A stretch of 64,000 nt of DNA from the IMG/VR virus record IMGVR_UViG_3300032167_000010, one strand, 5' to 3'. Shown piece by piece: positions 32,723-48,429 of this stretch. Origin of the DNA: a virus. Its lineage: Duplodnaviria; Heunggongvirae; Uroviricota; Caudoviricetes. Numbering within the stretch: the stretch's first letter is position 1; the number at the start of each line of letters is the position of its first letter. The translations under genes were made by a program, and so were the position numbers. The notes beneath the pieces were generated by a model. That model worked only from the letters and a program-made list of their open reading frames with translations. It was not told the origin of the DNA and did not search any database.

Positions 32723-32728
32723 AAAAAT

Positions 32729-32816: not shown

Positions 32817-32823
32817 GTAATTT

Positions 32824-33446: not shown

Positions 33447-33534
33447 GGAGAGATGTCAGAGTGGCCTAATGTGCACGCTTGGAAAGCGTGTGTACTGAAA
33501 GGTACCACAGGTTCGAATCCTGTTCTCTCCGCCA
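33447..33534 (+). tRNA. trnS: tRNA-Ser(GGA)
   Basis: CACGC-TTGGAAA-GCGTG, long variable arm, GCCA. Confidence 0.93.
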
Positions 33535-34084: not shown

Positions 34085-34162
34085 GCGGGATTGATGTTTT
34101 AATGGCTAGCATTTCTGCCTTCCAAGCAGATCGTGAGGGTTCGAGTCCCTTATCCCGTTCCA
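34085..34162 (+). tRNA. trnG: tRNA-Gly(TCC)
   Basis: TCTGC-CTTCCAA-GCAGA, TCCA. Confidence 0.92.
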
Positions 34163-34510
34163 GTATATCTTGGATAAAATTCTAGATACCAAGAAACTTC
34201 GAATATATTGAATAAGAAGGCTGAGTCCGTCGGTACAAGGCAATATGAGAGAATGATCAACGGACTACTCTCAAAATTATTTTTTTGGGCTGGTCATAAG
34301 ATCTAGGTCCACCAATACGGGAGTTTTCCTGTTATTTAGTTGTTAGCTTAGTAAGTCGTAGGCCGGACAAATACGTGTAGCCCCCGGTTATTGCGAGAGT
34401 CGAACAGCGCAACGGGGTGGTTGGCAACAACTAGTCGAAAGATGTAGATAAGTTCATTACACGTGTTTATTTATAATACTCGATTCTCTCAAAGGAAACT
34501 AGAGAGACGT

Positions 34511-34586
<76 letters not shown>

Positions 34587-34874
34587 ATTTGGGTAGAAGG
34601 TAGTCGCTTGAAATACAGTTGAGCCTCTAAAATACGCTCTTATATACGGCGAGGAATAGTATATAATATAATGTAAAGTTAAATAAGGTGCCACGAAGCT
34701 TTATAAATAATCTTTGCTGTGTTAATAAACGGGAAACTGTTTTACTCGAGGTGAGCTTATAAAAGGGTCAGTAGCTGTGGTAAATGGAACGAGATAAACA
34801 GCCTTATATTTATGTAAAATATTTCTAAGGAGGTAATCATTATGCTATAACTAAATTTATAAGGAGTTATCGTA

Positions 34875-35234
34875 ATGAAACCAAAACACAAATATTTTAG
34901 AAATCAGCGCTATAAGAACTCGCTTGAAAGAAAGTATAACAACGGATATAACGAAAGTTATCCAAGTAATATTGTTTTCTTAACAAAAGAACAAGACCCA
35001 CGTGCTAAAAGGGAAGCCGCTTGGTGGTGGAGCTATGACTTTAAGAAGAAAACACATTACAAATATTATGCTAGACCTGAAGTTCCTTATACTGTTATGG
35101 AAGAACACTATAAACCCGATAGAACTAAGCATTTTTTCAAGAAACATTCAAATAGAGCTGTAAGACGTACAAAAGACGCTTATAACGGCGGAAGCTGTAA
35201 AAAAGTTTTTGATTTATGGTGGACATTGTTTTAA
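34875..35234 (+). CDS. Basic hypothetical protein within the tRNA island
   Basis: 119 aa, AAGGAG RBS, followed by a hairpin. Confidence 0.7.
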   Translation: MKPKHKYFRNQRYKNSLERKYNNGYNESYPSNIVFLTKEQDPRAKREAAWWWSYDFKKKTHYKYYARPEVPYTVMEEHYKPDRTKHFFKKHSNRAVRRTKDAYNGGSCKKVFDLWWTLF

Positions 35235-35263
35235 GTCTTGGCTAGTTTTAACTAGCCTTATTT

Positions 35264-35339
35264 AGGGGTGTCGTATAGTTGGTTAGTACACAAGACTTTG
35301 ACTCTTGCAGGGTTAGTTCGAGTCTAGCCGCCCCTGCCA
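35264..35339 (+). tRNA. trnQ: tRNA-Gln(TTG)
   Basis: CAAGA-CTTTGAC-TCTTG, GCCA. Confidence 0.9.
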
Positions 35340-35428
35340 GATGCTGAGTATGACTATCCTTCAACAGAAAACAGTACGTCATTCTATCACAATATGAATG
35401 AAGCACAAACAAAAGAAGGGATTTATAT

Positions 35429-35549
35429 CACGACTTAGTTCATAGGTAAGAGCACCCAAATCCCAGGGAAGAGAGAAGCGTTGAAGCTGATTACTAGCTA
35501 GAATTGGCAGAGCTGAAGAGGAGCATCGTCGTAGGTGCAGTCGTGTCAA
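35429..35549 (+). ncRNA. Free-standing ~120-nt tRNA-like RNA, paralogue of the tRNA-Thr insert
   Basis: CACGACT/AGTCGTG acceptor-like stem, D arm, CCC-AAATCCCA-GGG hairpin, T-like arm. Confidence 0.7.
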
Positions 35550-35618
35550 TTATTAAATTAATAATTTATTAAAAAATTATTAGCTAAATTAATTAGATAA
35601 AGTTAAGGAGTATATAAC

Positions 35619-35714
35619 ATGAAAAAGATTATTTTTGCCAAAACATTAAAAAATAACAATAGTAGTGTTATGCCATTTTATCGTAAAGCCAGAGACCCAG
35701 TATTCCAGTGTTAA
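35619..35714 (+). CDS. Putative 31-aa peptide MKKIIFAKTLKNNNSSVMPFYRKARDPVFQC
   Basis: AAGGAG RBS, downstream of a GCTAAATTA motif. Confidence 0.4.
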   Translation: MKKIIFAKTLKNNNSSVMPFYRKARDPVFQC

Positions 35715-35825
35715 GAATTTTTATAGTAGATAAAGTATCTTAGCGCTTGGGATTATAAAAAATTCTGAGCGCTTTTTATTTTTATTATTAAAATTTACAT
35801 GAGAGTATTGTATAATATATTATAA

Positions 35826-35959
35826 GCGCCTGTAGCTCAGTTGGCAGAGCACGTGACTTGTTTGAGTAGCATAAGTAATGCGATATTATGTGAGTTCAAA
35901 TCTTACCTCAAGCACCATTAATCACGGTGTCCCGAGTTCGAATCTCGGCAGGCGCACCA
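35826..35959 (+). tRNA. trnK: tRNA-Lys(TTT) interrupted at 34/35 by a 58-nt mini-tRNA (35860-35917)
   Basis: Exons of 34 nt and 42 nt give 76 nt with CGTGA-CTT|TTAA-TCACG. Confidence 0.9.
35860..35917 (+). ncRNA. Anticodon-arm-less mini-tRNA nested in tRNA-Lys
   Basis: GTTTGAG/CTCAAGC stem, D arm GCAT-AAGTA-ATGC, T arm GTGAG-TTCAAAT-CTTAC, ACCA. Confidence 0.88.
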
Positions 35960-36209
35960 AAGAGGGCTATTTCCAAGCCCTGCTGGTTTGCTCGGCCGTT
36001 ATTGGTATTTAATGGAAATAAGTATTAATAGATAAAGTACGATAATCTTTATCCCTGGTTATGCAGGTTAATATAGAGGTAAGCGAGTGGTTTCCTGCGC
36101 ATTCCTACATATCAAATTCGGCGAGGAGATGGTTTGGTTTCTACTAACCAAATAACTTAGTAGACTATCTAGAGTAATATTCCGGGGATAGTTAAATAGT
36201 AGAATATAT

Positions 36210-36318
36210 GTGAGAGTAGCCAAGTAGTAAGGCCACCCGACGGGGTTACAAAGTGAGGTGCAAGTCCCACTGAAAGCATAGGGCGTACGGATCGTTGGTG
36301 CAAATCCAACCTCTCACA
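36210..36318 (+). ncRNA. tRNA-like RNA with two T-loop hairpins and no CCA
   Basis: GTGAGAG/CTCTCAC stem, D arm, TGCAAGT and TGCAAAT loops. Confidence 0.6.
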
Positions 36319-36324
36319 ATTTAT

Positions 36325-36399
36325 AGGGGATTGGTGTTAATGGCAGCATAGGGGTCTCCAAAACCTTTGGTTAGAGTTCAAATCTTTAATCCCCTGCCA
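36325..36399 (+). tRNA. trnW: tRNA-Trp(CCA)
   Basis: GGGGT-CTCCAAA-ACCTT, GCCA. Confidence 0.9.
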
Positions 36400-36549
36400 G
36401 GGCAGTTATAATGTGGTGAAGAATGGTCTGCCGAAGCAAAATCCGTAGGGTCATGAGGTATGGATACTCCTCGATTAATATAAGTATGCAAATTGAAAAT
36501 AGGCCTTAAGTAAATAAGTGAAAATATTAATAAAATTATCCATATTTTT

Positions 36550-36625
36550 GCAGGATTAGCTCAGTTGGGAGAGCAATTGTCTTACAAGCAATGGGTCGGC
36601 GGTTCGAGCCCGTCATTCTGTACCA
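36550..36625 (+). tRNA. trnV: tRNA-Val(TAC)
   Basis: ATTGT-CTTACAA-GCAAT, ACCA. Confidence 0.92.
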
Positions 36626-36883
36626 GTTGAGTTCGGATATAGCGAACTTTTGAAATGCTTAAGCATACTAGTAAATACTTAATCAAAGTAAATTTAGTAG
36701 TGGAATGTAATGTGGAAAAAGCTTTGACTCCGATACCATTTCACTCAACACCATTCAGTTCTGGGGTAAGTTAGTTGAACCGGTTATACTAACAACCATA
36801 TGTGCGTAGAATATGGATTTAACCTGACAGGCGGATATTCCTGTAGATGCAGAAAGGCTGCGAACTGAGACCATTTTAATTAC

Positions 36884-37000
36884 ATGTCAGTGGCGGAAAA
36901 ATCCTGCAGACCAAAGACAGTAGGTGGATAGACGTAACCCTGTTAAGGGTGAAGAGTCTTGCAAGCTCTTATAAAGGTTCAAATCCTTTCTGACATACCA
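36884..37000 (+). ncRNA. Atypical type-II tRNA-like RNA with D-loop insertion and 6-nt anticodon loop
   Basis: ATGTCAG/CTGACAT-ACCA, T arm AAAGG-TTCAAAT-CCTTT, ACCC-TGTTAA-GGGT. Confidence 0.7.
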
Positions 37001-37116
37001 AGGGCAAACAGTTATCACTTTCATTAGAGCCCTAGATAAAAGTTCCTGAAAGTGAAAGTTTTTCTTTTTCACAGTAGCTTGGTTTTATGATGACTTAAAA
37101 AACACAAACTATGATT

Positions 37117-37192
37117 CTAGGTATAGCACAATTGGATGTGCATCGCCCTTCTAAGGCGACGGTTGTAGGTTCGAGCCCTGCTACCTAGACCA
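37117..37192 (+). tRNA. trnR: tRNA-Arg(TCT)
   Basis: TCGCC-CTTCTAA-GGCGA, ACCA. Confidence 0.93.
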
Positions 37193-37199
37193 AAAGTAT

Positions 37200-37277
37200 G
37201 CCTCGGTAGCTCAGTTCGGTAAGAGCACTAGACTGAAAATCTAGACGTCGGCGGTTCAAATCCACCCTGAGGCACCA
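37200..37277 (+). tRNA. trnF: tRNA-Phe(GAA)
   Basis: CTAGA-CTGAAAA-TCTAG, ACCA. Confidence 0.93.
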
Positions 37278-37411
37278 AAAGCGGAAAAAGTACAATTCTG
37301 CTCAGCAACGCGTAGTATAGGTAGAGGTAGAATTACGCCAAAACGAGGTCATATGCCGTGGAGGAAACCCTGACACCGACGAGACTGGTTCATCAGGAGC
37401 GTTGTGAATAT

Positions 37412-37484
37412 GCCAGATGTGCTAGGAACACAAGGAGGTCTCATACACCACCTGTGCTTGGAGCGTAACCAAGATCTGGTACCA
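37412..37484 (+). ncRNA. Degenerate CAT-anticodon tRNA-like RNA
   Basis: GCCAGAT/ATCTGGT-ACCA, CTCATAC loop, non-canonical T loop AGCGTAA. Confidence 0.6.
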
Positions 37485-37570
37485 ATAGTAAATATAGGTT
37501 CGAGCCCTGTATTGGGGAGCCTTAAGTGGAACAACTCCCCGATTAGTTTAATTGGACTAAAACTTACTAT
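37485..37570 (+). ncRNA. Second circularly permuted tRNA-like RNA, open at the anticodon end
   Basis: ATAGTAA/TTACTAT closing stem, T arm, ATTGGGGAG/CTCCCCGAT stem, D arm. Confidence 0.75.
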
Positions 37571-38012
37571 GCACGAAACCGCGGGAAGTGTGGTAACCGG
37601 CGGTCTAAAAATGAAGGATCACCAAACCTTATACATGACAACGCTGAAATCGCCTCTATGATGTATAAGTGAGTCCAATAGCCTTGACAGTAAGACTGGG
37701 GTTGAATGTTACCTTACATATTACGATATGGTAAGATACTAAAAGCTGTCTGAAATACCTCTGGCAAGAGATTTAGTAGTGACTCTATAACATAAACTAC
37801 TTGGTAGCGTATGTGCGGAAGGCAAGGCAGTGTTTTTACATTGTTCCTTGGATACTATAAGAAATTATAGTAGTACAGGCTATGTTGAATAGTCTTAAAT
37901 AAAAACCCGTGAATGTCAGTAAATGTCCCGAAAGTATCAACAGAGAAGCTGACTAATCTCGTTCTAGGTGTAGGATAGGGACGAGCAGGTTTACGGGGCT
38001 CCTGCTCAATAT

Positions 38013-38087
38013 GGGGAATGTAGTGTAAAGGTAGCACCTCAGTTTGTGGCACTGATAGTTAGAGTTCGATCCTCTACGTTCCCACCA
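38013..38087 (+). tRNA. trnH: tRNA-His(GTG) with encoded G-1 and A73
   Basis: TCAGT-TTGTGGC-ACTGA; 3' end CGTTCCC-A-CCA. Confidence 0.9.
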
Positions 38088-38104
38088 GTTAAGTTATATT
38101 ATAT

Positions 38105-38190
38105 GGGTAGGTAGCGAAGAGGTTAAACGCTGCGGGCTGTAAACCCGCCCCTGTTTAGGTTCGCTGGTTCGAATCCAGCCCTGCCCACCA
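38105..38190 (+). tRNA. trnY: tRNA-Tyr(GTA)
   Basis: GCGGG-CTGTAAA-CCCGC, ACCA. Confidence 0.93.
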
Positions 38191-38387
38191 ATACGACTAG
38201 ACTCATAAGTCGTTCAATAGAGTACAAAGCCTTGGTTGCGGGAGTCGCAATTACACAAGGATGCAGAGACTCGCCCTTATAAAGGGAATTAAATAAATTG
38301 AGTATGGGCATGATTAGGGACTTTCCACCCATGAAGATAAAGCGGAAAGGATAACGTTATGACGCCTGGGAATAGACCAGGATGCAT

Positions 38388-38464
38388 ACGCTCTTAGCTC
38401 AATTGGATAGAGCTTTGCGCTACGGACGCAACGGTTAGGGGTTCGAGTCCCTTAGAGCGTGCCA
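38388..38464 (+). tRNA. trnR: tRNA-Arg(ACG)
   Basis: TTGCG-CTACGGA-CGCAA, GCCA. Confidence 0.93.
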
Positions 38465-38672
38465 AGCCTTCTTACAGAGATAACCATCACGTTGGCACTG
38501 CTGAAGAATAAAACCAGGAGATTTTGGCGCTCCTGTTTGGATGTTGAAACTTCCTATTGTTAATCTGTTTGAGACTCAAAACAGAGCGTTTACTCTGGTA
38601 ATCGTTGGAAAACCTATGAGGTAGTATAACTGACTCAGTGTTATATGACTGCAGGGAATAGTTCTGCACTAT

Positions 38673-38750
38673 CGATGTGTAGTTCAGTTGGTTTAGAGCA
38701 CCTGTCTGATACACAGGAAGTCGGTGGTTCGAACCCACCCACATCGACCA
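38673..38750 (+). tRNA. trnI: tRNA-Ile(GAT)
   Basis: CCTGT-CTGATAC-ACAGG, ACCA. Confidence 0.88.
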
Positions 38751-38762
38751 AAAATTTAATAT

Positions 38763-38838
38763 CTGGGTGTGGCGCAGTTGGTAGCGCGCTTGAATGGGGT
38801 TCAAGAGGTCGGGAGTTCAAGTCTCTTCACTCAGACCA
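38763..38838 (+). tRNA. trnP: tRNA-Pro(GGG)
   Basis: CTTGA-ATGGGGT-TCAAG, ACCA. Confidence 0.9.
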
Positions 38839-38937
38839 TAAAAATATTATACTTTATTAAATTTGTTTTTAAATTATATGCTAAATTAATAGTACCCTGA
38901 TTAAAAATTAAATAATTTATTGTATAATATAATATCT

Positions 38938-39031
38938 GGAGGGGTACTCAAGTTGGTGAAGAGGACGCACTGCTAACGCGTTAGGGCGGTGATGAGCCGT
39001 CGCGAGAGTTCGAGTCTCTCCCCCTCCGCCA
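38938..39031 (+). tRNA. trnS: tRNA-Ser(GCT)
   Basis: ACGCA-CTGCTAA-CGCGT, long variable arm, GCCA. Confidence 0.92.
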
Positions 39032-39066
39032 ATTACTATATATTAAAATTTATTTTGGGGCTATTA

Positions 39067-39378
39067 ATGTATACTATAATTTATAAAGGTAAGTCAATCT
39101 CTTACAACGAAAATAATATTCATATAAAAAATTCATATAAAGTTAAAAATAGCGCCGAAATGGAAGAAGCTTTAAGATATGTTGTAGCCAGAGCTGCTAA
39201 ACGCGGAATTACCTATAAACGCAGTATGGCTAGTTGGATTAGAGAATGGAAAACACATAATTTTTTATGTGGTATGAAATACAAAGTAGCTCAAACTTCT
39301 TCAGTAGACCTTAATGAGAATGAGAGTTTATTTAGACGTTTAAGTTATTTTATATTAGCTCTATTTTATAGAGGCTAA
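39067..39378 (+). CDS. Hypothetical protein (start moved to the ATG downstream of tRNA-Ser)
   Basis: MYTIIYKG..., 103 aa; the longer ORF call overlaps the tRNA. Confidence 0.6.
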   Translation: MYTIIYKGKSISYNENNIHIKNSYKVKNSAEMEEALRYVVARAAKRGITYKRSMASWIREWKTHNFLCGMKYKVAQTSSVDLNENESLFRRLSYFILALFYRG

Positions 39379-39385
39379 ACCTTAC

Positions 39386-39462
39386 GGGCCCATATATCAG
39401 CTGGCTAGATGGTTTCCCTTGCAAGGAAAAGGTCGTCGGTTCGAATCCGACTGGGTCCACCA
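39386..39462 (+). tRNA. trnA: tRNA-Ala(TGC)
   Basis: G3:U70 pair, TTTCC-CTTGCAA-GGAAA, ACCA. Confidence 0.93.
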
Positions 39463-39587
39463 CTAGTAGATAAGTAACAAATATCAGCACTACAACAAGC
39501 CTACGTAGGTTAGTATAGCGTATTAATCTATGTATGAAATTAAATGCTAGATGTGTAGCGAGTGCAAGACTTTATTGTACGTTTTAT

Positions 39588-39670
39588 GGGGGTGTGGTGA
39601 AATTGGCAGACACGCCAGACTTAGGATCTGGTGCGTAAGCGTGCAGGTTCAACTCCTGTCACCCCCACCA
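39588..39670 (+). tRNA. trnL: tRNA-Leu(TAG)
   Basis: CCAGA-CTTAGGA-TCTGG, ACCA. Confidence 0.93.
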
Positions 39671-39679
39671 AAATAATAT

Positions 39680-39754
39680 GGTCCTTTAGTATATCGGTTA
39701 GTATAGCGGACTGTCACTTCGCAGAGAGGAGTTCAACTCTCCTAAGGACCGCCA
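39680..39754 (+). tRNA. trnD: tRNA-Asp(GTC)
   Basis: GCGGA-CTGTCAC-TTCGC, GCCA. Confidence 0.92.
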
Positions 39755-39918
39755 ATAAACACAATATAACGAAGAATATTGAGGTTAATGTATTCTAAGG
39801 TAACTGATAGGGGTAACCCACCAAAGAGCTAATAGGATTTTTCTAATGCTGAAGTTACATAGGTATTAGACTTTGTTGACCTAACTCTACCTAAGGTCAT
39901 TAGTATTGTGTTATATTT

Positions 39919-39993
39919 TGGGGAGTCGCCAAGCGGTAAGGCCCTGGATTCTGACTCCAGTACTCGTAGGTTCGAATCCTGCTTCCCCAGCCA
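39919..39993 (+). tRNA. trnQ: tRNA-Gln(CTG)
   Basis: CTGGA-TTCTGAC-TCCAG, GCCA. Confidence 0.93.
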
Positions 39994-40054
39994 TAGTATG
40001 AGGTTTCGTGGGAAGTGCCCCGAGTAAAACTAGCAACAAATTACCTCACTTTAT

Positions 40055-40131
40055 GCCCAGTTGGAGAAGAGGCTTAACTCACCACCCTTTCACGGTGGCA
40101 TTCGCGTGTTCGAATCACGTACTGGGTACCA
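40055..40131 (+). tRNA. trnE: tRNA-Glu(TTC)
   Basis: CCACC-CTTTCAC-GGTGG, ACCA. Confidence 0.92.
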
Positions 40132-40208
40132 GGAAGTTGTTGGTTGTATAATACTTTAAACCTTCACGGCTTGACCTACGCCGTACAGTAAGTAGGTTAT
40201 AAACAGAT

Positions 40209-40283
40209 TGGTAGGTAGCCTAGCGGATAGGCAGCAGACTGTTAATCTGCCTTAGGTGGGTTCAACTCCCTCCCTACCAGCCA
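40209..40283 (+). tRNA. trnN: tRNA-Asn(GTT)
   Basis: GCAGA-CTGTTAA-TCTGC, GCCA. Confidence 0.9.
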
Positions 40284-40344
40284 CTAAATTAAAACTTATA
40301 TCTCTAAGACAATAAAATATTTTATATAAAGGAGATTGTGTATT

Positions 40345-40566
40345 ATGTTAAAACACAAATATCTATTCTTAGAGATCAGTGCAAATGATGATCAAGTATT
40401 GTCAAAAAGAATCCTTAAATCAAGAGAATCAGGTATGAGATTAATGGAAAAAGAACTAACTAGTCTTGATGCTGAAGTAAGAGAGTTGATTTATAGAGAT
40501 GCTAGAAAACACTTGCAAGAATTTATTTGCACTAATGGATTAGTATTCATTATAAATAGGATCTAA
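40345..40566 (+). CDS. Hypothetical protein
   Basis: AAGGAG RBS before the ATG at 40345; 73 aa. Confidence 0.55.
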   Translation: MLKHKYLFLEISANDDQVLSKRILKSRESGMRLMEKELTSLDAEVRELIYRDARKHLQEFICTNGLVFIINRI

Positions 40567-40580
40567 TCCAATCTCTATAT

Positions 40581-40642
40581 TATCAGTTAGTGTACGGAGC
40601 ACTCCAATGGCAGAGTAAGTTCAATTCTTACAATGATAACCA
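40581..40642 (+). ncRNA. Free-standing anticodon-arm-less mini-tRNA
   Basis: TATCAGT/AATGATA-ACCA, D arm GTGT-ACGGA-GCAC, T arm GTAAG-TTCAATT-CTTAC. Confidence 0.7.
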
Positions 40643-40771
40643 AGCGCTTATTTGAGATAGTCACTAGGACAATAAGAACTGTTGCATAAAGACTATTATG
40701 GTGAACAGTGGTGTAAGCTAAGACAGAGACTTACATAGGTGAGTACCAGATAATCAAATCTCACCTTACCT

Positions 40772-40846
40772 GGCCTCATGGTCAAGCGGTTAAGACGCCG
40801 CCCTCTCACGGCGGAATCAGGAGTTCGATTCTCCTTGGGGCTACCA
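40772..40846 (+). tRNA. trnE: tRNA-Glu(CTC)
   Basis: CCGCC-CTCTCAC-GGCGG, ACCA. Confidence 0.92.
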
Positions 40847-40878
40847 TAAAAACAGTAAATAATTTAAATATATAAATT

Positions 40879-40935
40879 AGAGCCTGAACTTATTTCTGAG
40901 GATAAAAATAAATATGGATTTAACTTAGTCAGGCC
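40879..40935 (+). ncRNA. Bulged-helix ncRNA family, copy 3 (57 nt)
   Basis: AGAGCCTG-A-ACT-TATTTCT ... AGT-CAGGCC. Confidence 0.7.
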
Positions 40936-40951
40936 ATTATAAAAATAACTT

Positions 40952-41027
40952 AGAGCTCATACTTATTTCTATTGAAGATACATATACTCCTGGACGTATG
41001 TGCCAGGCACTAAAGATTAGTTGAGCC
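40952..41027 (+). ncRNA. Bulged-helix ncRNA family, copy 4 (76 nt)
   Basis: AGAGCTCA-T-ACT-TATTTCT ... AGT-TGAGCC. Confidence 0.7.
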
Positions 41028-41047
41028 TGTTATTTTTAATTCAATAT

Positions 41048-41123
41048 TGCAGAGTAGAGAAGTGGTCATCTCGCCGTCCTCATAAGTCGGAAATCATTGG
41101 TTCGAATCCAATCTTTGCACCCA
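41048..41123 (+). tRNA. trnM: tRNA-Met(CAT), initiator-like D arm, subtype uncertain
   Basis: CCGTC-CTCATAA-GTCGG, T arm, CCA. Confidence 0.82.
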
Positions 41124-41127
41124 TTAT

Positions 41128-41322
41128 GCTTCAGTAGCTCAACTGGCAGAGCAGCTGACTTCGTCGATTAGTTTAATTGGGAAAACAACCGAATCCCAGG
41201 TAAAAGACAACCTTTGATAACAATTACGATCAAATTGTTTAGGTTAAGATAAACAAGTTCAAATCTTGTATCGGCGTCCAGTAATCAGCAGGTTGATGGT
41301 TCAATTCCGTTCTGAAGCTCCA
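41128..41322 (+). tRNA. trnT: tRNA-Thr(TGT) interrupted at 34/35 by a 119-nt tRNA-like RNA (41162-41280)
   Basis: Exons of 34 nt and 42 nt give 76 nt with GCTGA-CTT|GTAA-TCAGC; acceptor GCTTCAG/CTGAAGC-TCCA. Confidence 0.9.
41162..41280 (+). ncRNA. tRNA-like RNA nested in tRNA-Thr
   Basis: CGTCGAT/ATCGGCG-TCCA, D arm GTTT..AAAC, T arm ACAAG-TTCAAAT-CTTGT. Confidence 0.87.
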
Positions 41323-41324
41323 CT

Positions 41325-41366
41325 AAAAAGAAAGTTATTCATTTTTTGGGTAGCTTTCTTTTTTTA
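41325..41366 (+). terminator. Terminator closing the tRNA island
   Basis: AAAAAGAAAGTTA/TAGCTTTCTTTTT stem with T tract. Confidence 0.65.
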
Positions 41367-41410
41367 TTATTTTTATTGTATTATATAATAATAAATTTTA
41401 GGAGTATTAA

Positions 41411-41635
41411 ATGAAAAATTATAACAGTTTTATTATATTTTCAATAGTTTGCAGATTGTTAGCTATTATAGGCGTTCTTGCTTTTGTAGCTTTTATGGTA
41501 GTTTCTACAAGTAATCTTAAATGCTTGTGGTTATTATTTTTACTTTTTGCTGTTGAGTGGGTACCTGTTTATGAAGTCAAATCAAAAAACTCTGAAGATA
41601 ATTCAGAAAATAAAGGAGTTATTATAAATGATTAA
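41411..41635 (+). CDS. Small membrane protein
   Basis: Two hydrophobic segments; AGGAG RBS. Confidence 0.65.
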   Translation: MKNYNSFIIFSIVCRLLAIIGVLAFVAFMVVSTSNLKCLWLLFLLFAVEWVPVYEVKSKNSEDNSENKGVIIND

Positions 41636-42224
41636 TGTTAAAAGATTAAGATGTTTTATTGGCTGGTTAGCAATGTTGCTTCCTTGGATTGTGGTTATCT
41701 TATCACTAGCTTTTGGTTATAGTTTTCCTGAATCTATTTCAGCTACCTATTACCGTGATGAGTGTATTGTGCCATTTATGATTATTTTGGGATCGGCTTC
41801 AATTTTACTTATGTATTATGATGGCTATGATAAAACTGATGATATCTTGAATACTGCTGCTGGTGTCTTAGGTTTATGTATTTGTTTTTTCCCATGTGAT
41901 GCTGGTGGTACTTTTAGACTCAGTACAGAACTTAATAGCACTTTACATATGATTTCTGCAGTATTATTTTTTATTATATTATCTTATATATCCATTTTCC
42001 AATTTACAAAAACATCTGGAAATATGACAAAACAGAAAAAGACACGTAATATTATCTACAGAGTCTGCGGTTGTGGTATGGTAGCATCATTTTTAATTTT
42101 ATTAATTCCAGGATTTTCGATTAAAATCTGGTTAACAGAAGCTATCGCTTTACTTTTCTTCGGAATATCGTGGTTAACTAAGTCTGATGTTTATAAGTGG
42201 TTAGCAGCTGACTCGAAGGAGTAA
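41628..42224 (+). CDS. Multi-pass membrane protein (DUF998-like)
   Basis: About 6 hydrophobic helices; SISATYY and LHMISAVLFF motifs. Confidence 0.65.
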   Translation: MINVKRLRCFIGWLAMLLPWIVVILSLAFGYSFPESISATYYRDECIVPFMIILGSASILLMYYDGYDKTDDILNTAAGVLGLCICFFPCDAGGTFRLSTELNSTLHMISAVLFFIILSYISIFQFTKTSGNMTKQKKTRNIIYRVCGCGMVASFLILLIPGFSIKIWLTEAIALLFFGISWLTKSDVYKWLAADSKE

Positions 42225-42229
42225 TACAT

Positions 42230-42829
42230 ATGATTAAAGTTATTAAACATGGACAAACAGAATTCACTCATACTTGTAGTCGCTGCGGCTGTGAGTTTAC
42301 ATATGAATATGAAGATATAAAGCAAGATAGCTTTAATTTAACGGCGTCTTCTGCTAGATTTGTAATATGCCCTGACTGTGGAAATCAGTGCTATATAAAC
42401 ATTGGTAATATTGGTTGGCCTTGGCCTAATAGCTCACCAATTCCTTGTAATACTCCCTCTGACACAGCGCTAAACCCTTGTAGTGATTGTGATTGGTGGA
42501 AGAGAATGACAACCGATGGAATTAACTGGTATGTTGGCGATACTCCCTGCACCTGGTGTGCTAAAAATCCTATGAAAGTGACTTGTGATACTACCACTAC
42601 GGCCACAATTAGTATTAATGATAACAGCAGCACTATTGGTACTCTACAACTTACACCTGAGGATTTAAAAAAGTATAATATGAATATCTACGGATACCGA
42701 CCAACTTCTGGTGAAGAGTGTCCGCCACCACCTCCTAAGTCTGGTTCTAATGTTGTAAAGAGCGGCTGTAATTCATGTCATAAAGAAACAAAGCGTGGTG
42801 GTAATAAAAACTGTAATTGTACAGAATAA
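42230..42829 (+). CDS. Cys-rich Zn-ribbon protein
   Basis: CSRCGCEF, CPDCG, CSDC, CTWC. Confidence 0.65.
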   Translation: MIKVIKHGQTEFTHTCSRCGCEFTYEYEDIKQDSFNLTASSARFVICPDCGNQCYINIGNIGWPWPNSSPIPCNTPSDTALNPCSDCDWWKRMTTDGINWYVGDTPCTWCAKNPMKVTCDTTTTATISINDNSSTIGTLQLTPEDLKKYNMNIYGYRPTSGEECPPPPPKSGSNVVKSGCNSCHKETKRGGNKNCNCTE

Positions 42830-42918
42830 AACTCAATCTGAGCCAAATTTGGGCTTCTAATGACGTTTAAATTTGTAACAAAAATTATATAATATTTGTT
42901 ACAAAAATAGGAGATTCT

Positions 42919-43377
42919 ATGAAAGAAACTAGACCACCTTTTAGCTGGAAAGTATTATTATTTGATATAAACAGTAAAAAATTAGAAGAATATGATGTTT
43001 TAAAATATCGTGAGAAGCTAGTTAAAGAGCTAAAAAAGAAATATAATACTAAAGAAGAATTTGCGGATAAATTAAATAGAGACTTAATGTATCAGTACTG
43101 GTCTAAGTGCCAATACGAAATGATTCTTTATATAGAAAATGGAAGAGTTTTTGCAAAGCCTTGGGTAGGGGTTAGAGACCTAGAGAATTATGCAGTGGAT
43201 ATTACAGATAGAACTGACTTGAATTGGCCAGCTTTTGCAGAAAAAATGATAAAAGAATATGGCTGGCGAGATGGTACTGTTAAAATAGATGTTTATGACC
43301 AGCTTAAGTTTAATTTTGATGAGCTAGTAGATTTTTGTTGGAATTATAGACACAAGTATCAAAGAACTAAAAAATAA
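42919..43377 (+). CDS. Hypothetical phage protein
   Basis: 152 aa, AGGAG RBS. Confidence 0.7.
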   Translation: MKETRPPFSWKVLLFDINSKKLEEYDVLKYREKLVKELKKKYNTKEEFADKLNRDLMYQYWSKCQYEMILYIENGRVFAKPWVGVRDLENYAVDITDRTDLNWPAFAEKMIKEYGWRDGTVKIDVYDQLKFNFDELVDFCWNYRHKYQRTKK

Positions 43378-43383
43378 TTAATT

Positions 43384-43419
43384 AAAAGAGCTGGTAAATT
43401 TTATCAGTTCTTTTATTTT
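43384..43419 (+). terminator. Intrinsic terminator
   Basis: AAAAGAGCTGGT/ATCAGTTCTTTT stem. Confidence 0.6.
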
Positions 43420-43587
43420 GTCTAGCTTTGTACTGTATAATATTATATAATTTGGAGGACCTAAGCTACGAGTAAAATAAAACGGCATGTAGTTCAAGCA
43501 GCTGTGAATAAGCTTGACGCAAAACTTCAAGAAGAAATAACCTGCGAGCACTGTGAAAAATGGCGAACGTTGGGATAGTGAGGATAA

Positions 43588-44130
43588 ATGATTATGGCAA
43601 AAATTTATAGAACAATTAATAAAGAAACTTTTGTACCTGAGAAAAACTATTTTAAGGTAGAAAAGGTAGAAGTGTGCAGAGATGAAACACCTGAAGAAGT
43701 TTTATATGAAAAGAAATCTAATACATACGCTTCATCCGCGTGGTTAATCGGATGCGTCGGTGGAGCAATAATTTTTGTGGCTTCGATAATTTTAGGAAGT
43801 TTTGGCTTGTTATTACCGTGTTTTGGATTAGTACTGCTACTCATTCCGCTGTTTATAATAGTTAAAAAATTATTTGACACCTCTGATAGTTATGAAGAAA
43901 AGCTTAATAAATTTTATAATGAATTTGGGGCAAAGCTTTGGGATGAGGCTACGGCTGAGCTTTATGAATATAATAAACAGCAGTATAAAATAGCCGAAGA
44001 ATGGCGAGCACAACATCCATTTGAAGAGAAAATTAGAGCAGTACTCGCTGACCCGAAATCAAGTGTGGATGTTGCAGAAATGGCATATTTCTTTGCTGAA
44101 AAATATTTAAAAGAAAAAGTAGGAGATTAA
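43588..44130 (+). CDS. Membrane-anchored hypothetical protein
   Basis: Two central hydrophobic helices. Confidence 0.65.
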   Translation: MIMAKIYRTINKETFVPEKNYFKVEKVEVCRDETPEEVLYEKKSNTYASSAWLIGCVGGAIIFVASIILGSFGLLLPCFGLVLLLIPLFIIVKKLFDTSDSYEEKLNKFYNEFGAKLWDEATAELYEYNKQQYKIAEEWRAQHPFEEKIRAVLADPKSSVDVAEMAYFFAEKYLKEKVGD

Positions 44131-44132
44131 TT

Positions 44133-44594
44133 ATGGCAAGTGTAATAGATAAGTATTCAATAGATCCAGAAACCGGGGTGATGAAAGATTTTATAATTGA
44201 AGACGTTAACGAAATTCCTGGAGCACTTGAAACTATTTGTAATATGTATCCGTATACTTATGAAGGTAAAAAGCCAGAAGGTTTTGTTTTTGATGAAGAT
44301 AAATCCGTAAAATGGAACAGAGAACAAGTAGAAATTTATAATAAAAAGCTCGACGAAGACCGTGAAAAACACAGAAAGCTTAGATATATTAGCAAAGTAA
44401 ATTTAGACAAAGCCGTTATAGATTACATTCTTAAATATGAAACTTCTACAAAAATGTCAAGGGCTATAGCTAACGGATTACTAGCTAAGATTAAGCTAGA
44501 ACACGATGACTGTTGGTGGCACTGGATTAGTTCTTATGTAGAATTTGCAGACTTTATTATTGATACTTTAAAGGAGGAAGATAAAAATGCTTAA
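44133..44594 (+). CDS. Hypothetical protein
   Basis: 153 aa, AGGAG RBS. Confidence 0.65.
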   Translation: MASVIDKYSIDPETGVMKDFIIEDVNEIPGALETICNMYPYTYEGKKPEGFVFDEDKSVKWNREQVEIYNKKLDEDREKHRKLRYISKVNLDKAVIDYILKYETSTKMSRAIANGLLAKIKLEHDDCWWHWISSYVEFADFIIDTLKEEDKNA

Positions 44595-44874
44595 TACTTG
44601 CGATATCTGTGGAAAAACTGCAGAGTGCGAAAGTGTTTGTAGTTGTTTTGGCGCATTTTCATACGCGATTTGTGAAGAGTGTCTTACGGCGGGTAAAGAA
44701 CCCTACAGCAGTATAGTAAGTTATATTGCAAACGCAGGACACTTCCCAAAAGATATTAGTTCTGAATATAGAGCTATAGTAAGAGAACAACTTAAACTAC
44801 ACAATAAGACTGAAGAAGAATTTATAACAGATGTAGAAAATTGTATTAATAATATGTATGCTTTTTTCTACTAA
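44587..44874 (+). CDS. Small Zn-finger-like protein
   Basis: CDICG and CEEC motifs. Confidence 0.65.
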   Translation: MLNTCDICGKTAECESVCSCFGAFSYAICEECLTAGKEPYSSIVSYIANAGHFPKDISSEYRAIVREQLKLHNKTEEEFITDVENCINNMYAFFY

Positions 44875-44919
44875 ATATTGTATTATATAATATAAAAATA
44901 ATTATTGAGGTTAAATAAT

Positions 44920-46341
44920 ATGAGTTATTATGCTATTGTAACTGCTTTAAAAAACGTGCGTAAGCACCCTAATGCAGACAGACTTCAACTTGCCTCAGTA
45001 TTTGGTAATACTATTTGTGTTGACTTAACTTATACTGATGGCCAACTTGGTGTATATTTTCCAACAGGTGGACAGCTTTCAGTAGCTTTTGCTGAGGCAA
45101 ATAACTTGCTTCGTAAAAAAGATGCCGAAGGAAATAATATCGGTGGATATATGGACCCAGATAAAAGAAATGTAGCGGCTATTAAACTAAGAGGTGAGAA
45201 GTCTGATGGGCTTTTCCTTCCTTTGAATAGTCTCGAAACTTTTGGTGATATTTCTACTTTGAAGGCTGGCGACCGAATCGACGTGTTTAATGGTACAGAG
45301 ATTTGCACCAAGTACATACCTAAAATTAATATTAGACGTGGCAGTTTTTCTGAAGGAAATCGTACTAGAAAAACTAAGGCGCCTATTGCTCCTTTATTTG
45401 CAGAACACGCAGACACTGAACAGCTTGCCTATAACTTGGGTATGTTTAAGGTCGGTGATGAATTAGAGTTTACTCTAAAAATGCACGGGACTTCTCAACG
45501 TACCGGTCATCTTAAAGTTTTGACTGGTTATAAGAGAACTTTTTTTGATAAGCTTTTTAAAAGACCTGGCACACCTATTTATGATTGGGGCTATGTTTCT
45601 GGTACCCGTCGTGTAGTTCTTGATACTTTTGATGGTGGTTTCTACGGCTCAAATGAATTCAGAGAACAACATCATAATGCTTTTGTTGGAAAGCTTTGGA
45701 AGGGTGAAACTGTTTATTACGAAGTAGTTGGTTTTACTCATACTGGTGCGCCTATTATGGGTAATGGTAATAACGAAAAACTTGGTAAAGACTTTGTAAA
45801 GCAGTATGGTAAAGAAACTGTATTTAGCTACGGCTGTAATCCAACTGGTGAGTGCATTATGTGTGGTGAAGATGAACTTAGCGCTTTTAAAGTTCCAGTT
45901 GATGTTCCAATATCAGATACTTATGTTTACCGTATGACAATGACTAATGAAGATGGTGAAATTGTTGAGTATACGCCAGACTTTATAAGGTATCGTTGTG
46001 AACAAATGGGCGTTAAATGTGTTCCTGTTTTCGGTAAAGCTACAATTAGTGAAGATAGACTACATTTTGTAACACAAGACGGTTATGACCATGACTATTT
46101 AATTGGTGACGGTACTATTGGTGATATGGTAGTAAAGTGTGCTGAAGACTTTTATGCTGGACCTGACCCTGTGGGTAAGACACACACTAGAGAAGGTGTT
46201 GTTGTTCGTATTACTAATAGACCTAAATTCGCAGCAGTAAAACATAAAAACTTTGAATTTAAGGTCTTAGAAGGTATCATTTCTGAAAAGCTTACAGAAT
46301 CAACCACAGAAATAGCAGAAGATGTTCTTGCGGAAATGTAA
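44920..46341 (+). CDS. ATP-dependent RNA ligase (DRB0094/Rnl2-like) with N-terminal OB-fold tRNA-binding-like domain
   Basis: N-terminal HPNADRL..IKLRGEKSDG; nucleotidyltransferase motifs TLKMHGTS, YYEVVG, REGVVVR, KHKNFEF. Confidence 0.85.
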   Translation: MSYYAIVTALKNVRKHPNADRLQLASVFGNTICVDLTYTDGQLGVYFPTGGQLSVAFAEANNLLRKKDAEGNNIGGYMDPDKRNVAAIKLRGEKSDGLFLPLNSLETFGDISTLKAGDRIDVFNGTEICTKYIPKINIRRGSFSEGNRTRKTKAPIAPLFAEHADTEQLAYNLGMFKVGDELEFTLKMHGTSQRTGHLKVLTGYKRTFFDKLFKRPGTPIYDWGYVSGTRRVVLDTFDGGFYGSNEFREQHHNAFVGKLWKGETVYYEVVGFTHTGAPIMGNGNNEKLGKDFVKQYGKETVFSYGCNPTGECIMCGEDELSAFKVPVDVPISDTYVYRMTMTNEDGEIVEYTPDFIRYRCEQMGVKCVPVFGKATISEDRLHFVTQDGYDHDYLIGDGTIGDMVVKCAEDFYAGPDPVGKTHTREGVVVRITNRPKFAAVKHKNFEFKVLEGIISEKLTESTTEIAEDVLAEM

Positions 46342-46353
46342 TAAGAGGTTTAT

Positions 46354-46605
46354 ATGAGCAAAAATACTAATAGTACAAATGGTGGAATTGGAGTAAGTAT
46401 GGTGTTATTTTTAATTTTTTTAGTTTTGAAACTTGTTGGGGTTATTAATTGGTCATGGTGGTGGGTGACTTCTCCACTTTGGATTACTACTAGTATCATA
46501 AGTTTAGTAATCGTAGTAGCATATATTTATTGTTGTATTGATGATGCTAAAGAAAGGCGCAGAATCAACAAATCAAGACGAGGTAATAAGAATGAAAAAG
46601 ACTAA
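46354..46605 (+). CDS. Small membrane protein
   Basis: LVLKLVGVINWSWWWVTSPLWI; two transmembrane segments. Confidence 0.7.
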   Translation: MSKNTNSTNGGIGVSMVLFLIFLVLKLVGVINWSWWWVTSPLWITTSIISLVIVVAYIYCCIDDAKERRRINKSRRGNKNEKD

Positions 46606-47401
46606 AGATTCACTTGGCGATCGCATGAAGGAGTTTTATGAGAATCGTTCTAAGATGTACCTCACAAGACGAACTCCTGTAATTATTCGTTTAGATGGTA
46701 AGGCTTTTCACAGCTTTACAAAAGGTTTTAAGAGACCTTACGATGAAATCTTCCATGAAGCAATGAATAACACAATGAAGTATCTTTGTGCTAATATTCA
46801 GGGTTGTAAACTTGGTTATACGCAGTCTGACGAGATTACACTTCTCTTGACTGACTATACTACTCTTACAACTGATGCTTGGTTTGGTTATGGCGTTCAG
46901 AAAATGTGCTCTATTGCAGCTTCGATGGCGACTTTAATGTTTAATAAGTATTTTAGAACTGCCGTTAATCGCCACTTTGAGGGCGCTATTGGCATGGATG
47001 ACTACCACAAGACCATGTGCCTAGCTCGTGATAAAGGCGCAATGTTTGATGCCCGTTGTTTTAATATTCCAAAAGAAGAAGTAACTAACTGCTTTATTTG
47101 GAGGCAGCAAGACGCAACTCGAAATGCTATTCAAATGTTAGGTCAAACTCATTTTTCTCATAGAGAATTACAAGGTAAAAGTTGCAATGATATTCAAGAC
47201 ATGTTGATGTTGCAAAAAGGTATTAATTTTAACGATATGCCTATTGAATTCAAGCGTGGTGTTTGTTGCATTAAAAAAGAAGTTGAATGCACTGATAGAC
47301 TTATAGGTTATAAGCATGATTGGGTAATAGATACAGAGATTCCAATTTTTACTCAGGATAGAAATTATATTGAACAATATTTACTAGAAAAAGAAATCTA
47401 A
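46592..47401 (+). CDS. thg1: tRNA(His) guanylyltransferase Thg1-like protein (3'-5' polymerase)
   Basis: GDRMKEFYE, IRLDGKAFH, YTQSDEI, FDARCF and WRQQDATRN motifs. Confidence 0.9.
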   Translation: MKKTKDSLGDRMKEFYENRSKMYLTRRTPVIIRLDGKAFHSFTKGFKRPYDEIFHEAMNNTMKYLCANIQGCKLGYTQSDEITLLLTDYTTLTTDAWFGYGVQKMCSIAASMATLMFNKYFRTAVNRHFEGAIGMDDYHKTMCLARDKGAMFDARCFNIPKEEVTNCFIWRQQDATRNAIQMLGQTHFSHRELQGKSCNDIQDMLMLQKGINFNDMPIEFKRGVCCIKKEVECTDRLIGYKHDWVIDTEIPIFTQDRNYIEQYLLEKEI

Positions 47402-47420
47402 AATTAAGAGGTGTTTAAAA

Positions 47421-47702
47421 ATGTTTATTATTAGTGGTGGAAGAGGAACTGGTAAAACTAAACTTTTACTTCAACATGCAGCTGATAAAGGCGCTACTAT
47501 TGCGTGTTCAAATCCTATAGAAATGAGAGAACGTGCTCATAGCTACGGAATTGTTGGACTTAATATTATTTCTTATGAAGATGTTGCTATTTTTAAAACG
47601 GCTTATCCTGATAAGGTAGACTCTTTGTATATTCATGATATAAATAAATTTCTTGAAACTAATTTTTCGTGGATATCTGGCTACTCACTAAGCTTTAGTT
47701 GA
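47421..47702 (+). CDS. Short P-loop protein
   Basis: Walker A-like GGRGTGKT at the N-terminus. Confidence 0.6.
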   Translation: MFIISGGRGTGKTKLLLQHAADKGATIACSNPIEMRERAHSYGIVGLNIISYEDVAIFKTAYPDKVDSLYIHDINKFLETNFSWISGYSLSFS

Positions 47703-47712
47703 GGTTAATTTA

Positions 47713-48429
47713 ATGGTATATATTACAGGAGATATTCACGGTAATCCATCAGAAATTATTTACATGGCTCAGCGCTGGGGAATAACTAAAGATGATATTA
47801 TAGTGCTTCTTGGTGACGTTGGAGCGAACTATTATCTTAATAAAAAAGATAATAGAACAAAAGAAGCTTTAAGTAAATATATTGATGCTACCATTCTTTG
47901 TATCCATGGTAATCACGAAGCGCGTCCTGCGATGATTGGGGGATATGAGCTTATGGATTGGAATGGTGGACAAGTATATGTTCAACCAGAGTATCCCAAC
48001 CTGCTCTTCGCTCATGATGGATCCATCTTTAATTTAGAGGGCTTGAGTTGTCTAGTGCTTGGCGGAGCGTACAGTGTAGATAAGTATTATCGTCTTAAAG
48101 AAGGCTATGCCTGGTTTTTTGATGAACAACCATGTAAAGGTATTAAACTTTACGCAGAGCGCCAAATTGCGGAAGCGGGCAATAAAGTAGATGTTGTATT
48201 TTCACACACCTGTCCATTTAAATATGAGCCTATTGAGGTATTTTTACCAGGCATTGATCAATCTACTGTTGATGACAGCACTGAAAAATGGCTTGATGAA
48301 ATCGAAAATAAACTTGATTATAAAGCCTGGTACTGTGGACATTGGCATATAAACAAACGTATAGATAAAATGCACTTTTTATTTAATACGGTTGAAATAT
48401 TAGATGATATTAAAGATAAAGGAAATTAA
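47713..48429 (+). CDS. Calcineurin-like metallophosphoesterase
   Basis: GDIHG, GDVG, GNHE, FSHT and GHWH motifs. Confidence 0.88.
   Translation: MVYITGDIHGNPSEIIYMAQRWGITKDDIIVLLGDVGANYYLNKKDNRTKEALSKYIDATILCIHGNHEARPAMIGGYELMDWNGGQVYVQPEYPNLLFAHDGSIFNLEGLSCLVLGGAYSVDKYYRLKEGYAWFFDEQPCKGIKLYAERQIAEAGNKVDVVFSHTCPFKYEPIEVFLPGIDQSTVDDSTEKWLDEIENKLDYKAWYCGHWHINKRIDKMHFLFNTVEILDDIKDKGN

Follow-up and report, generated by a model that had tools for sequence, protein, structure and literature searches.

The DNA stretch analysed here, called the window below, is 64,000 nucleotides (nt) long and belongs to the IMG/VR virus record IMGVR_UViG_3300032167_000010 (Caudoviricetes). Its source is a large tailed phage, with topoisomerase II subunits, a gp25-like baseplate protein and open reading frames (ORFs) of 2268 and 2500 amino acids (aa). 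The nearest relatives in IMG/VR are contigs of 130–220 kb, and no near-identical cultured phage was found in INPHARED. A transfer RNA (tRNA) island occupies 32.7–41.3 kb of the window; ARAGORN reports 25 tRNAs in it, with no tRNA-Lys among them. Two tRNA genes of the island, for tRNA-Lys(UUU) and tRNA-Thr(UGU), are split in the anticodon loop by inserts that are themselves tRNA-like, and a gene for a putative ATP-dependent RNA ligase starts 3.6 kb beyond the last tRNA of the island. On balance, we favour the view that cutting by RNase P and RNase Z, followed by sealing by the phage ligase, matures these two tRNAs. The parts of the split genes are as follows.

35826–35859, + strand: 5′ exon of tRNA-Lys(UUU), 34 nt, ends in C32-U33-U34; gives a canonical 76-nt tRNA once joined to 35918–35959
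35860–35917, + strand: Lys insert, 58 nt, with acceptor stem (7 bp), D arm and T arm, no anticodon arm; ends in ACCA
35918–35959, + strand: 3′ exon of tRNA-Lys(UUU), 42 nt, ends in ACCA
41128–41161, + strand: 5′ exon of tRNA-Thr(UGU), 34 nt, ends in C-U-U34
41162–41280, + strand: Thr insert, 119 nt, with 7-bp acceptor stem, T arm and extra internal hairpins; ends in TCCA
41281–41322, + strand: 3′ exon of tRNA-Thr(UGU), 42 nt, ends in TCCA

The spliced sequences, with the insert removed, were run through ARAGORN, the inserts were folded, and the island was scanned with the Rfam tRNA model and the group I intron models. The joined exons are called as tRNA-Lys(ttt) and tRNA-Thr(tgt); each has 76 nt, encodes its CCA and forms an anticodon loop of 7 nt. 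Both inserts are placed after U34, and their boundaries run exactly from acceptor position +1 to NCCA. The Rfam tRNA model matches the Lys insert with 34.6 bits at 35860–35914, over the gathering threshold, and the whole Thr gene (41128–41319) with 45.3 bits as a single interrupted match. A related phage (locus L005) has an uninterrupted tRNA-Lys that is 88% identical, the D arm and the anticodon arm being identical, and this homologue fixes the Lys junction. ARAGORN finds no other tRNA-Lys in the window; on the unspliced island it calls a false 97-nt "tRNA-Leu(caa)" at 35859–35955, across the split tRNA-Lys gene. A group I intron identity was rejected, since the inserts have 58 and 119 nt vs. 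a size of at least about 200 nt and no Rfam group I model matches in 32000–42000 at E ≤ 0.1. The anatomy of the two split genes is confirmed, and the initial annotation, which had described a nested tRNA-Lys and a nested tRNA-Thr, is borne out by ARAGORN on the spliced sequences, by the insert folds and by Rfam.

The ligase gene lies downstream of the island.

44920–46341 (ORF from 44905), + strand: ATP-dependent RNA ligase, Rnl5-like, activity putative from sequence and fold; N-terminal OB domain, then nucleotidyltransferase domain

The protein matches phrog_968 'RNA ligase' at 6e-61, shows weak Pfam matches to PHA02142 OB (residues 12–107) and RNA_ligase, and belongs to a family of 2104 cluster representatives at E ≤ 1e-3. 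A PDB search with the single sequence gave no match; it was profile and fold searches that revealed the relationship. A profile of 70 homologues matches Naegleria gruberi NgrRnl (5cot) with an E of 1e-8 over the OB domain and motif I. With the AF2 model (pLDDT 92.7), the top 13 Foldseek matches are all NgrRnl (E 4.5e-17, TM 0.67–0.72 on the target), and T4 Rnl2 is a second-tier match (E 3e-6, TM 0.25–0.4) over the nucleotidyltransferase core only. The initial annotation had called the ligase Rnl2-like; this identity was rejected, because the OB domain is N-terminal and T4 Rnl2 falls far behind NgrRnl in the fold match, and both profile and fold point to Rnl5. There is no C-terminal OB domain, as the Rnl5 architecture demands. 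In NCBIfam the protein scores 49.8 bits with TIGR02306 (Deinococcus DRB0094 ligase), under the cut-off of 151, and since this curated score is not reached it is filed as 'Rnl5-like', a distant and longer clade. Motif I reads KMHGTS, its lysine being Lys187 when numbering begins at the ATG of 44920, and the residues K187, E268, E425, K441 and K443 (motifs I, III, IV and V) are invariant across the 70 homologues. The ligase keeps all catalytic residues and is predicted to be catalytically intact. Its OB domain is weakly similar to tRNA-binding OB folds (PF01588 at E 0.033; PheRS beta chains in Foldseek). Separately, five homologues (P0005, P0012, P0020, P0021 and P0023) have 788–813 aa and match in two blocks about 340 residues apart, which looks like an intein or another insertion within the gene.

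For the maturation of the split genes we propose the following route, each cleavage and ligation step of which we infer from the observed gene anatomy, enzyme families and cross-genome association. Each insert would be a self-contained tRNA-like processing signal inside the anticodon loop. Host RNase P would first cut at insert +1 and leave a 5′ exon with a 3′-OH. An RNase Z-kind 3′-end tRNA endonuclease would then cut right after the insert CCA, leaving a 3′ exon with a 5′-phosphate. The exons would be held together by acceptor and anticodon stem pairing, and the phage ATP-dependent RNA ligase, here the Rnl5-like protein, would seal the nick without end healing. This would yield a free mini-tRNA as well as tRNA-Lys(UUU) and tRNA-Thr(UGU), for which the phage would have no other source.

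The end chemistry of this route, already advanced in the initial annotation, is coherent, as both nucleases leave 3′-OH and 5′-phosphate ends: RNase P leaves an upstream 3′-OH and a 5′-phosphate on the tRNA, RNase Z a 3′-OH on the tRNA and a 5′-phosphate on the trailer. Exon halves with such ends would suit an ATP-dependent ligase and not RtcB, which joins 3′-phosphate or 2′,3′-cyclic phosphate ends to 5′-OH ends, and the distribution of ligases given below matches this. RNase Z cutting exactly after an encoded CCA, with the acceptor stem alone being needed, is known from Thermotoga, a methanogen and Bacillus (with Co2+) (PMC7479834). A search for a phage RNase Z (PF12706) found none in four of the five complete genomes with nested tRNAs (nested-positive genomes), with one sub-threshold match; the cutting enzymes are therefore presumably those of the host.

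The spread of nested tRNAs was followed with a detector that takes a stretch of 40–300 nt whose first 7 nt pair with the 7 nt before N-CCA, removes it, and requires ARAGORN to call a tRNA with the anticodon loop spanning the joint. The intron mode of ARAGORN was dropped as a detector, since it fuses neighbouring tRNAs in dense arrays. On the window and 45 ligase-bearing loci the detector reports 14 cases, and none on the reversed sequences. Three pattern scans of IMG/VR were independent of the ligase and looked for two T-arm motifs at a spacing that only a nested gene allows; they gave 40 + 72 detector calls, mostly clear, with 0 in the reversed controls. All scans together yield about 90 distinct nested tRNAs in IMG/VR phages. 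None of the 120 pattern matches in bacterial and archaeal genomes turned out to be a true nested tRNA. The window inserts show both defining features of the nested class, namely a site in the anticodon loop with the 7-nt loop restored on removal, and a tRNA-like sequence from +1 to the discriminator and CCA.

Boundary statistics were taken over 93 nested cases. The tRNA that carries the insert is Lys-UUU in 22 cases, Ile-UAU in 21, Gln-UUG in 12, Glu-UUC in 8, Leu-UAA in 7, Asn-GUU in 7, Gly-UCC in 5 and Thr-UGU in 4, and the split tRNA has a wobble U in 82/93. The cut falls after position 34, 35 or 36 in 34, 33 and 24 cases, respectively. A U stands directly before the insert in 76/93, insert +1 is G or C in 88/93, and the discriminator is a purine (RCCA end) in 73/93. 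Bacterial RNase P prefers U at −1 and recognizes RCCA, and the boundary statistics, as far as sequences can tell, fit RNase P substrates. Inserts are 40–288 nt long with a median of 68; clear cases range from 44-nt acceptor/T-arm minihelices (many inserts have 44–45 nt) up to a complete tRNA-Asn in a tRNA-Lys. Of the cases located among 8 or more other tRNAs, 38 out of 39 are the sole copy of their anticodon in the locus. To judge from these features, the nested tRNA genes look functional.

Several individual loci are worth recording. At L092, 6108–6259, the anticodon loop of tRNA-Lys(UUU) harbours a complete tRNA-Asn(GTT), own CCA included, a true tRNA gene within a tRNA gene. The tRNA-Gln(UUG) at L052 (G005:C1:158225-158418, minus strand) has an insert of some 120 nt that is a homologue of the L101 one and ends on its 3′ side in TCCT and not TCCA; a perfect insert CCA is thus not strictly kept. 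At L294, 8496–8651 (G036, 455 kb), tRNA-Leu(UAA) is interrupted behind U34 by 71 nt that have neither a tRNA shape nor a CCA end, perhaps a small intron of another kind.

For the nested-positive loci, the entire source records were searched in turn with the ligase profile, Pfam Rnl1 (PF09511) and RNA_ligase (PF09414). Controls came from tRNA-rich genomes (10–67 tRNAs), the tRNA islands of which were scanned with the nested-tRNA detector. In a first batch of 10 nested-positive genomes, every one without an Rnl5-like ligase carries Rnl1 or another PF09414 type, and no RtcB was found in the 10 genomes searched. Among nested-positive genomes at least 77% complete and taken from the ligase-independent scans, 39 of 39 encode an ATP-dependent RNA ligase, and a genome named G031, discussed below, stands as the exception. 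The types are distributed in a complementary manner: 18 Rnl5-like (the clade of the window), 15 Rnl1 and 6 other PF09414. Three presumed controls proved to be nested-positive, and all three are ligase-positive. The ten nested-negative controls comprise four with an ATP-dependent ligase, two with RtcB only and four with none. A Fisher test of nested tRNAs vs. ligase gives p = 1.5e-5, or about 0.01 with the positives collapsed to about 10 lineages. The RtcB-only phages, G047 (C1:211068-212237) and G051 (C1:92532-94592), are large and tRNA-rich and have no nested tRNA in their tRNA islands. These genome surveys indirectly support the view that nested tRNAs exist only where an ATP-dependent RNA ligase is available, G031 apart. 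The initial annotation had proposed a test for co-occurrence of nested tRNAs with this ligase clade across genomes. The outcome is strongly positive for some ATP-dependent RNA ligase (39/39 vs. 4/10 controls) and not particular to the clade, in place of which Rnl1 or other PF09414 types occur.

Beyond the ligase, two more genes of the window were examined; the initial annotation had joined all three, 3.6–7 kb downstream of the island, into one candidate system with the introns.

46538–47401, + strand: Thg1-like protein (TLP) of the bacterial TLP type, likely start ATG near 46592
47713–48429, + strand: calcineurin-type metallophosphoesterase (PF00149 7.5e-13 over residues 2–213), N-terminal GDIHG at 47725–47739

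The three genes are indeed located there, and RNA ligase, Thg1-like and metallophosphoesterase domains are matched. The Thg1-like protein matches PF04446 at 2.4e-31, PF14413 at 4e-4 and PDB 4kgk, a 'Thg1-like uncharacterized protein', at 5e-67. Thg1 is present in 8 of the 19 nested-positive or related genomes and absent from nine complete ones, and it is probably not part of splicing. The phosphoesterase gene lies 1.4 kb downstream of the ligase; the protein gave no sequence match in PDB or NCBIfam, and its homologue is found in two of the five complete nested-positive genomes. Because both are irregular partners of nested tRNAs, the three genes do not make one dedicated splicing system, and this part of the initial annotation is not supported. 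The Thg1-like protein and the phosphoesterase are best explained as repair or maturation accessories outside the splicing route. The idea that Thg1 adds G-1 to the phage tRNA-His was rejected, as the tRNA-His of the window already encodes G-1 and the protein is a bacterial TLP; in relatives with and without Thg1 the G-1, N73 and CCA states of tRNA-His vary with no consistent pattern. The tRNA-His itself (38013–38087) has its encoded G-1 facing an A73 discriminator, a eukaryote-like combination and not the bacterial G-1:C73 pair. Another side observation in the island is an Rfam match to YrlA (Y RNA-like) at 32626–32729 (35.7 bits, E 6.5e-5, under the gathering score of 69), which abuts the first tRNA.

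An AAA_33 kinase is present in 19 of the 19 related or nested-positive genomes, often beside the ligase. The gene order is ligase, RlaP, kinase in G009; kinase-HD fusion, then Rnl1 in G011; and ligase, kinase, metallophosphoesterase in G005. Sets of a ligase with kinase, phosphoesterase and RlaP are a heal-and-seal RNA-repair repertoire already known in jumbo phages (Iyer et al. 2021, PMC7824862). In the 64-kb window, which is part of the phage genome, no kinase was found by tblastn with the ORFs around the ligases of relatives, including the kinase ORFs of G009, G011 and G005, nor by Pfam on the neighbouring ORFs. Apart from the ligase region, the tblastn queries matched just an unrelated ORF at 29.4 kb. 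A Walker-A scan of the window gave only a P-loop ORF of 93 aa (47421–47702; GGRGTGKT, possible Walker B), located after the Thg1-like gene and before the phosphoesterase gene; no family matches it, and a polynucleotide kinase would be longer. This bears on the resealing of tRNAs cut by host anticodon nucleases, which the initial annotation had also envisaged, with PrrC or PARIS as a challenge, because a nuclease-cut tRNA would need a kinase too. Its further idea that U34 modification could be altered is, like the resealing, speculative.

The kinase and phosphoesterase genes raise the possibility that splicing itself is of the heal-and-seal kind, with kinase and phosphoesterase healing the ends and the ligase sealing them, as in the Trl1 pathway of yeast and plants. 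Such genes accompany the ligases in all genomes checked, and the metallophosphoesterase of the window is itself only 1.4 kb from the ligase. We nevertheless consider this scheme improbable: the insert ends are mature tRNA ends (+1 and CCA), i.e., RNase P and RNase Z sites and not sites of a cyclizing endonuclease known so far, no endonuclease emerged as a candidate, the 64-kb window yielded no kinase, and the window phosphoesterase is missing from three of the five complete nested-positive genomes.

A more serious competitor, although still an unlikely one, is that the ligase serves, with the Thg1-like protein and the phosphoesterase, purely for anti-defence repair of tRNAs, as Pnkp/Rnl1 of T4 do against anticodon nucleases. 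The nested tRNAs would then be matured otherwise or would not be tRNAs, and co-occurrence would reflect the traits of large tRNA-rich phages. The ubiquity of the AAA_33 kinase (19/19), the ligases of relatives standing beside polynucleotide kinase, RlaP, HD or metallophosphoesterase genes as in the jumbo-phage repertoire (PMC7824862), the ligase-positive phages without nested tRNAs and the ligases in 4/10 controls all agree with it. It does not readily account for 39/39, which is unlikely by chance at a base rate of about 40–70%, for the replacement of one another by three unrelated ligase families, or for RtcB, which would be equally good for repair and was never found with nested tRNAs in the genomes searched. 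Moreover, we know of no other bacterial activity that joins 3′-OH and 5′-phosphate RNA ends.

Maturation by RNase P, RNase Z and the phage ligase has its own difficulties, and the following points weigh against it. Characterized Rnl5 enzymes are described in PDB titles as nick-sealing on duplexes, and it is we who infer sealing in an anticodon loop for this clade. Likewise, the 3′-processing enzyme of the phage's host would have to cut exactly after CCA. Damage repair after nuclease attack alone would explain the ligase, given the kinase, RlaP, HD or metallophosphoesterase genes adjoining it in relatives. RNA ligases are frequent anyway in large tRNA-rich phages (PMC7824862), and four of the ten nested-negative controls carry an ATP-dependent one. 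Genome size and common descent are confounders of the association, which, with the small control set, is positive and not decisive. Two phages are ligase-positive without a nested tRNA, namely G003, of which only the tRNA island was scanned, and the cultured Bacillus phage PBC2. The PBC2 ligase is 47% identical to that of the window and is followed by a polynucleotide kinase gene; all ARAGORN-called tRNAs of the PBC2 cluster are intact, and the detector found no nested case with a 3-nt anticodon. As to the PBC2 record itself (L307, NC_071040.1:148846-151780), it lists the tRNAs on the + strand, whereas Rfam and ARAGORN put all of them on the − strand, and ARAGORN adds an unannotated tRNA-Glu and tRNA-Cys.

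The last point of this kind is G031 (IMGVR_UViG_3300011559_000001, 310 kb, rated 100% complete), which is nested-positive and has no detectable ligase of any family. Searches with the window-type ligase profile, Rnl1, RNA_ligase, RtcB and DNA_ligase_A_M were all negative; a PNKP_ligase search was negative too, but also in control genomes, so that it is uninformative. At L138:14443-14597 of G031 a tRNA-Gly(UCC)-like gene contains a complete tRNA with the anticodon AAT; once spliced, the tRNA-Gly would have an 8-nt loop. An intact tRNA-Gly(UCC) is found some 1 kb from it (L291:493-568). Nested tRNAs in ligase-free genomes had been named in the initial annotation as a finding that would count against the ligase; one such case exists, with an abnormal loop and an intact copy nearby. 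The split tRNA-Gly may be a decaying copy, as would be expected where no ligase is available, though it still stands as an exception. The same genome holds another curiosity at L291:181-325, a tRNA-Ile(UAU) seemingly split after position 36/37 by a 70-nt insert. In this insert the tRNA 3′ part (variable loop, T arm, acceptor 3′ strand, GCCA) comes before the 5′ part (acceptor 5′ strand, D arm), and it appears to be a circularly permuted tRNA-like unit in the anticodon loop.

The split tRNA-Gly of G031, with its abnormal loop, intact neighbour and lack of a ligase, agrees with a reading in which nested genes are dead: tRNA-like mobile or duplicated units would have landed in anticodon loops, the split tRNAs would never be rejoined, and the phage would rely on host tRNAs. 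For nested genes in general this is very improbable in our estimation. The exons form perfect cloverleaves in many diverged lineages, the anticodon is the sole copy in 38/39 loci, the exact +1/NCCA insert boundaries are kept, and the ligase association is absolute apart from G031.

In our reading, the ligase is not dedicated to splicing; it would be a general RNA-repair enzyme on which nested tRNAs depend or which makes them tolerable. The combination of host nucleases with a phage ligase that was put forward in the initial annotation is partly supported by the genomic data. What is new here is a ligase-independent census of nested tRNAs and their contingency test vs. RNA ligases. The introns of bacterial tRNA genes are regarded as self-splicing group I introns, and textbooks assign protein-dependent tRNA splicing to archaea and eukaryotes. 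Whether tRNA-shaped introns define a third tRNA splicing route, so far only in large phages, appears to us evenly balanced; in that route the insert would be a mini-tRNA or at times a whole tRNA, host RNase P and RNase Z would release it, a phage ligase of any family would join the exons with no healing, and the supply of wobble-U and Asn tRNAs would become ligase-dependent.

If true, the splicing route would be new, its parts being RNase P, RNase Z and an RNA ligase, and simple enough to be rebuilt from these three components in purified form. Phage RNA ligases would gain a constitutive substrate besides damage repair, and the retention of three unrelated families by tRNA-rich phages could be due to this. 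The supply of Lys, Gln, Glu, Leu-UAA, Ile-UAU, Thr-UGU and Asn tRNAs, largely anticodon-nuclease targets, would depend on the phage's own ligase, and one gene could give two RNAs. The inserts may be selfish passengers or may be advantageous, possible advantages being a ligase-gated supply and protection of tRNAs attacked by anticodon nucleases. It is a speculation that the bias of inserts to tRNAs targeted by anticodon nucleases ties nested genes to the phage–host conflict. Since standard tools miss or misname nested genes, phage tRNA sets and the codon-usage arguments built on them are systematically incomplete.

Among known systems, the closest are the 'enigmatic' tRNA introns of Lak megaphages, one of which possibly encodes a tRNA (Devoto et al. 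2019, PMC6784885), and the jumbo phage tRNA introns that 'could encode another tRNA' in a 2026 survey (PMC13037316). They share with the window an anticodon-loop insert that is possibly itself a tRNA, including a tRNA-Thr(TGT) case, and intron-less variants place the junction; however, the introns are recorded in both papers without an excision or ligation mechanism and with no mention of RNA ligase (PMC6784885, PMC13037316). The window phage is different from Lak phages and smaller (contigs of relatives, 130–220 kb), and its inserts include a mini-tRNA without an anticodon. No description of tRNA splicing by RNase P and RNase Z plus a ligase was found in full-text literature searches.

In T4 tRNA repair (Pnkp and Rnl1 vs. 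PrrC), a phage ATP-dependent RNA ligase likewise acts on an anticodon-loop break, as is proposed here. In contrast, the T4 damage has 2′,3′-cyclic phosphate as well as 5′-OH termini that need healing, whereas here the break would be gene-programmed and ready to ligate; T4 also has a kinase, and none was found in the 64-kb window. Many of the insert-carrying tRNAs (Lys, Gln, Glu, Asn, Thr) are classic anticodon-nuclease targets. The repair sets of jumbo phages likewise combine ligases with kinase, phosphoesterase, RlaP and, in some cases, Thg1 (PMC7824862). The Rnl5 enzymes NgrRnl (PDB 5COT) and DraRnl (TIGR02306) have the same order, in which an N-terminal OB domain precedes a nucleotidyltransferase domain that holds motifs III, IV and V besides the motif I Lys, but the window ligase is about 130 residues longer (473 vs. 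340 aa) and about 15% identical.

The protein-spliced introns of archaea and eukaryotes and the permuted or split tRNA genes of Cyanidioschyzon and Nanoarchaeum resemble nested genes in the anticodon-loop intron, its removal by proteins and joining by a ligase, and in permuted tRNAs the ends are likewise defined by RNase P and RNase Z. Unlike the nested phage introns, archaeal and eukaryal ones rely on a bulge-helix-bulge, a splicing endonuclease and cyclic-phosphate ends, and mostly sit at 37/38; the phage introns would use tRNA shape as the signal, are cut after 34, 35 or 36, and occur in a bacteriophage context. Group I introns, to our knowledge the sole introns established for bacterial tRNA genes, share the anticodon-loop position in bacterial and phage tRNAs, but the window inserts are far too small and their fold is tRNA-like. 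In MALAT1/mascRNA, an embedded tRNA-like element directs RNase P and RNase Z cuts at its own ends; there the flanks are not rejoined, whereas in the nested tRNA genes rejoining would be the point.

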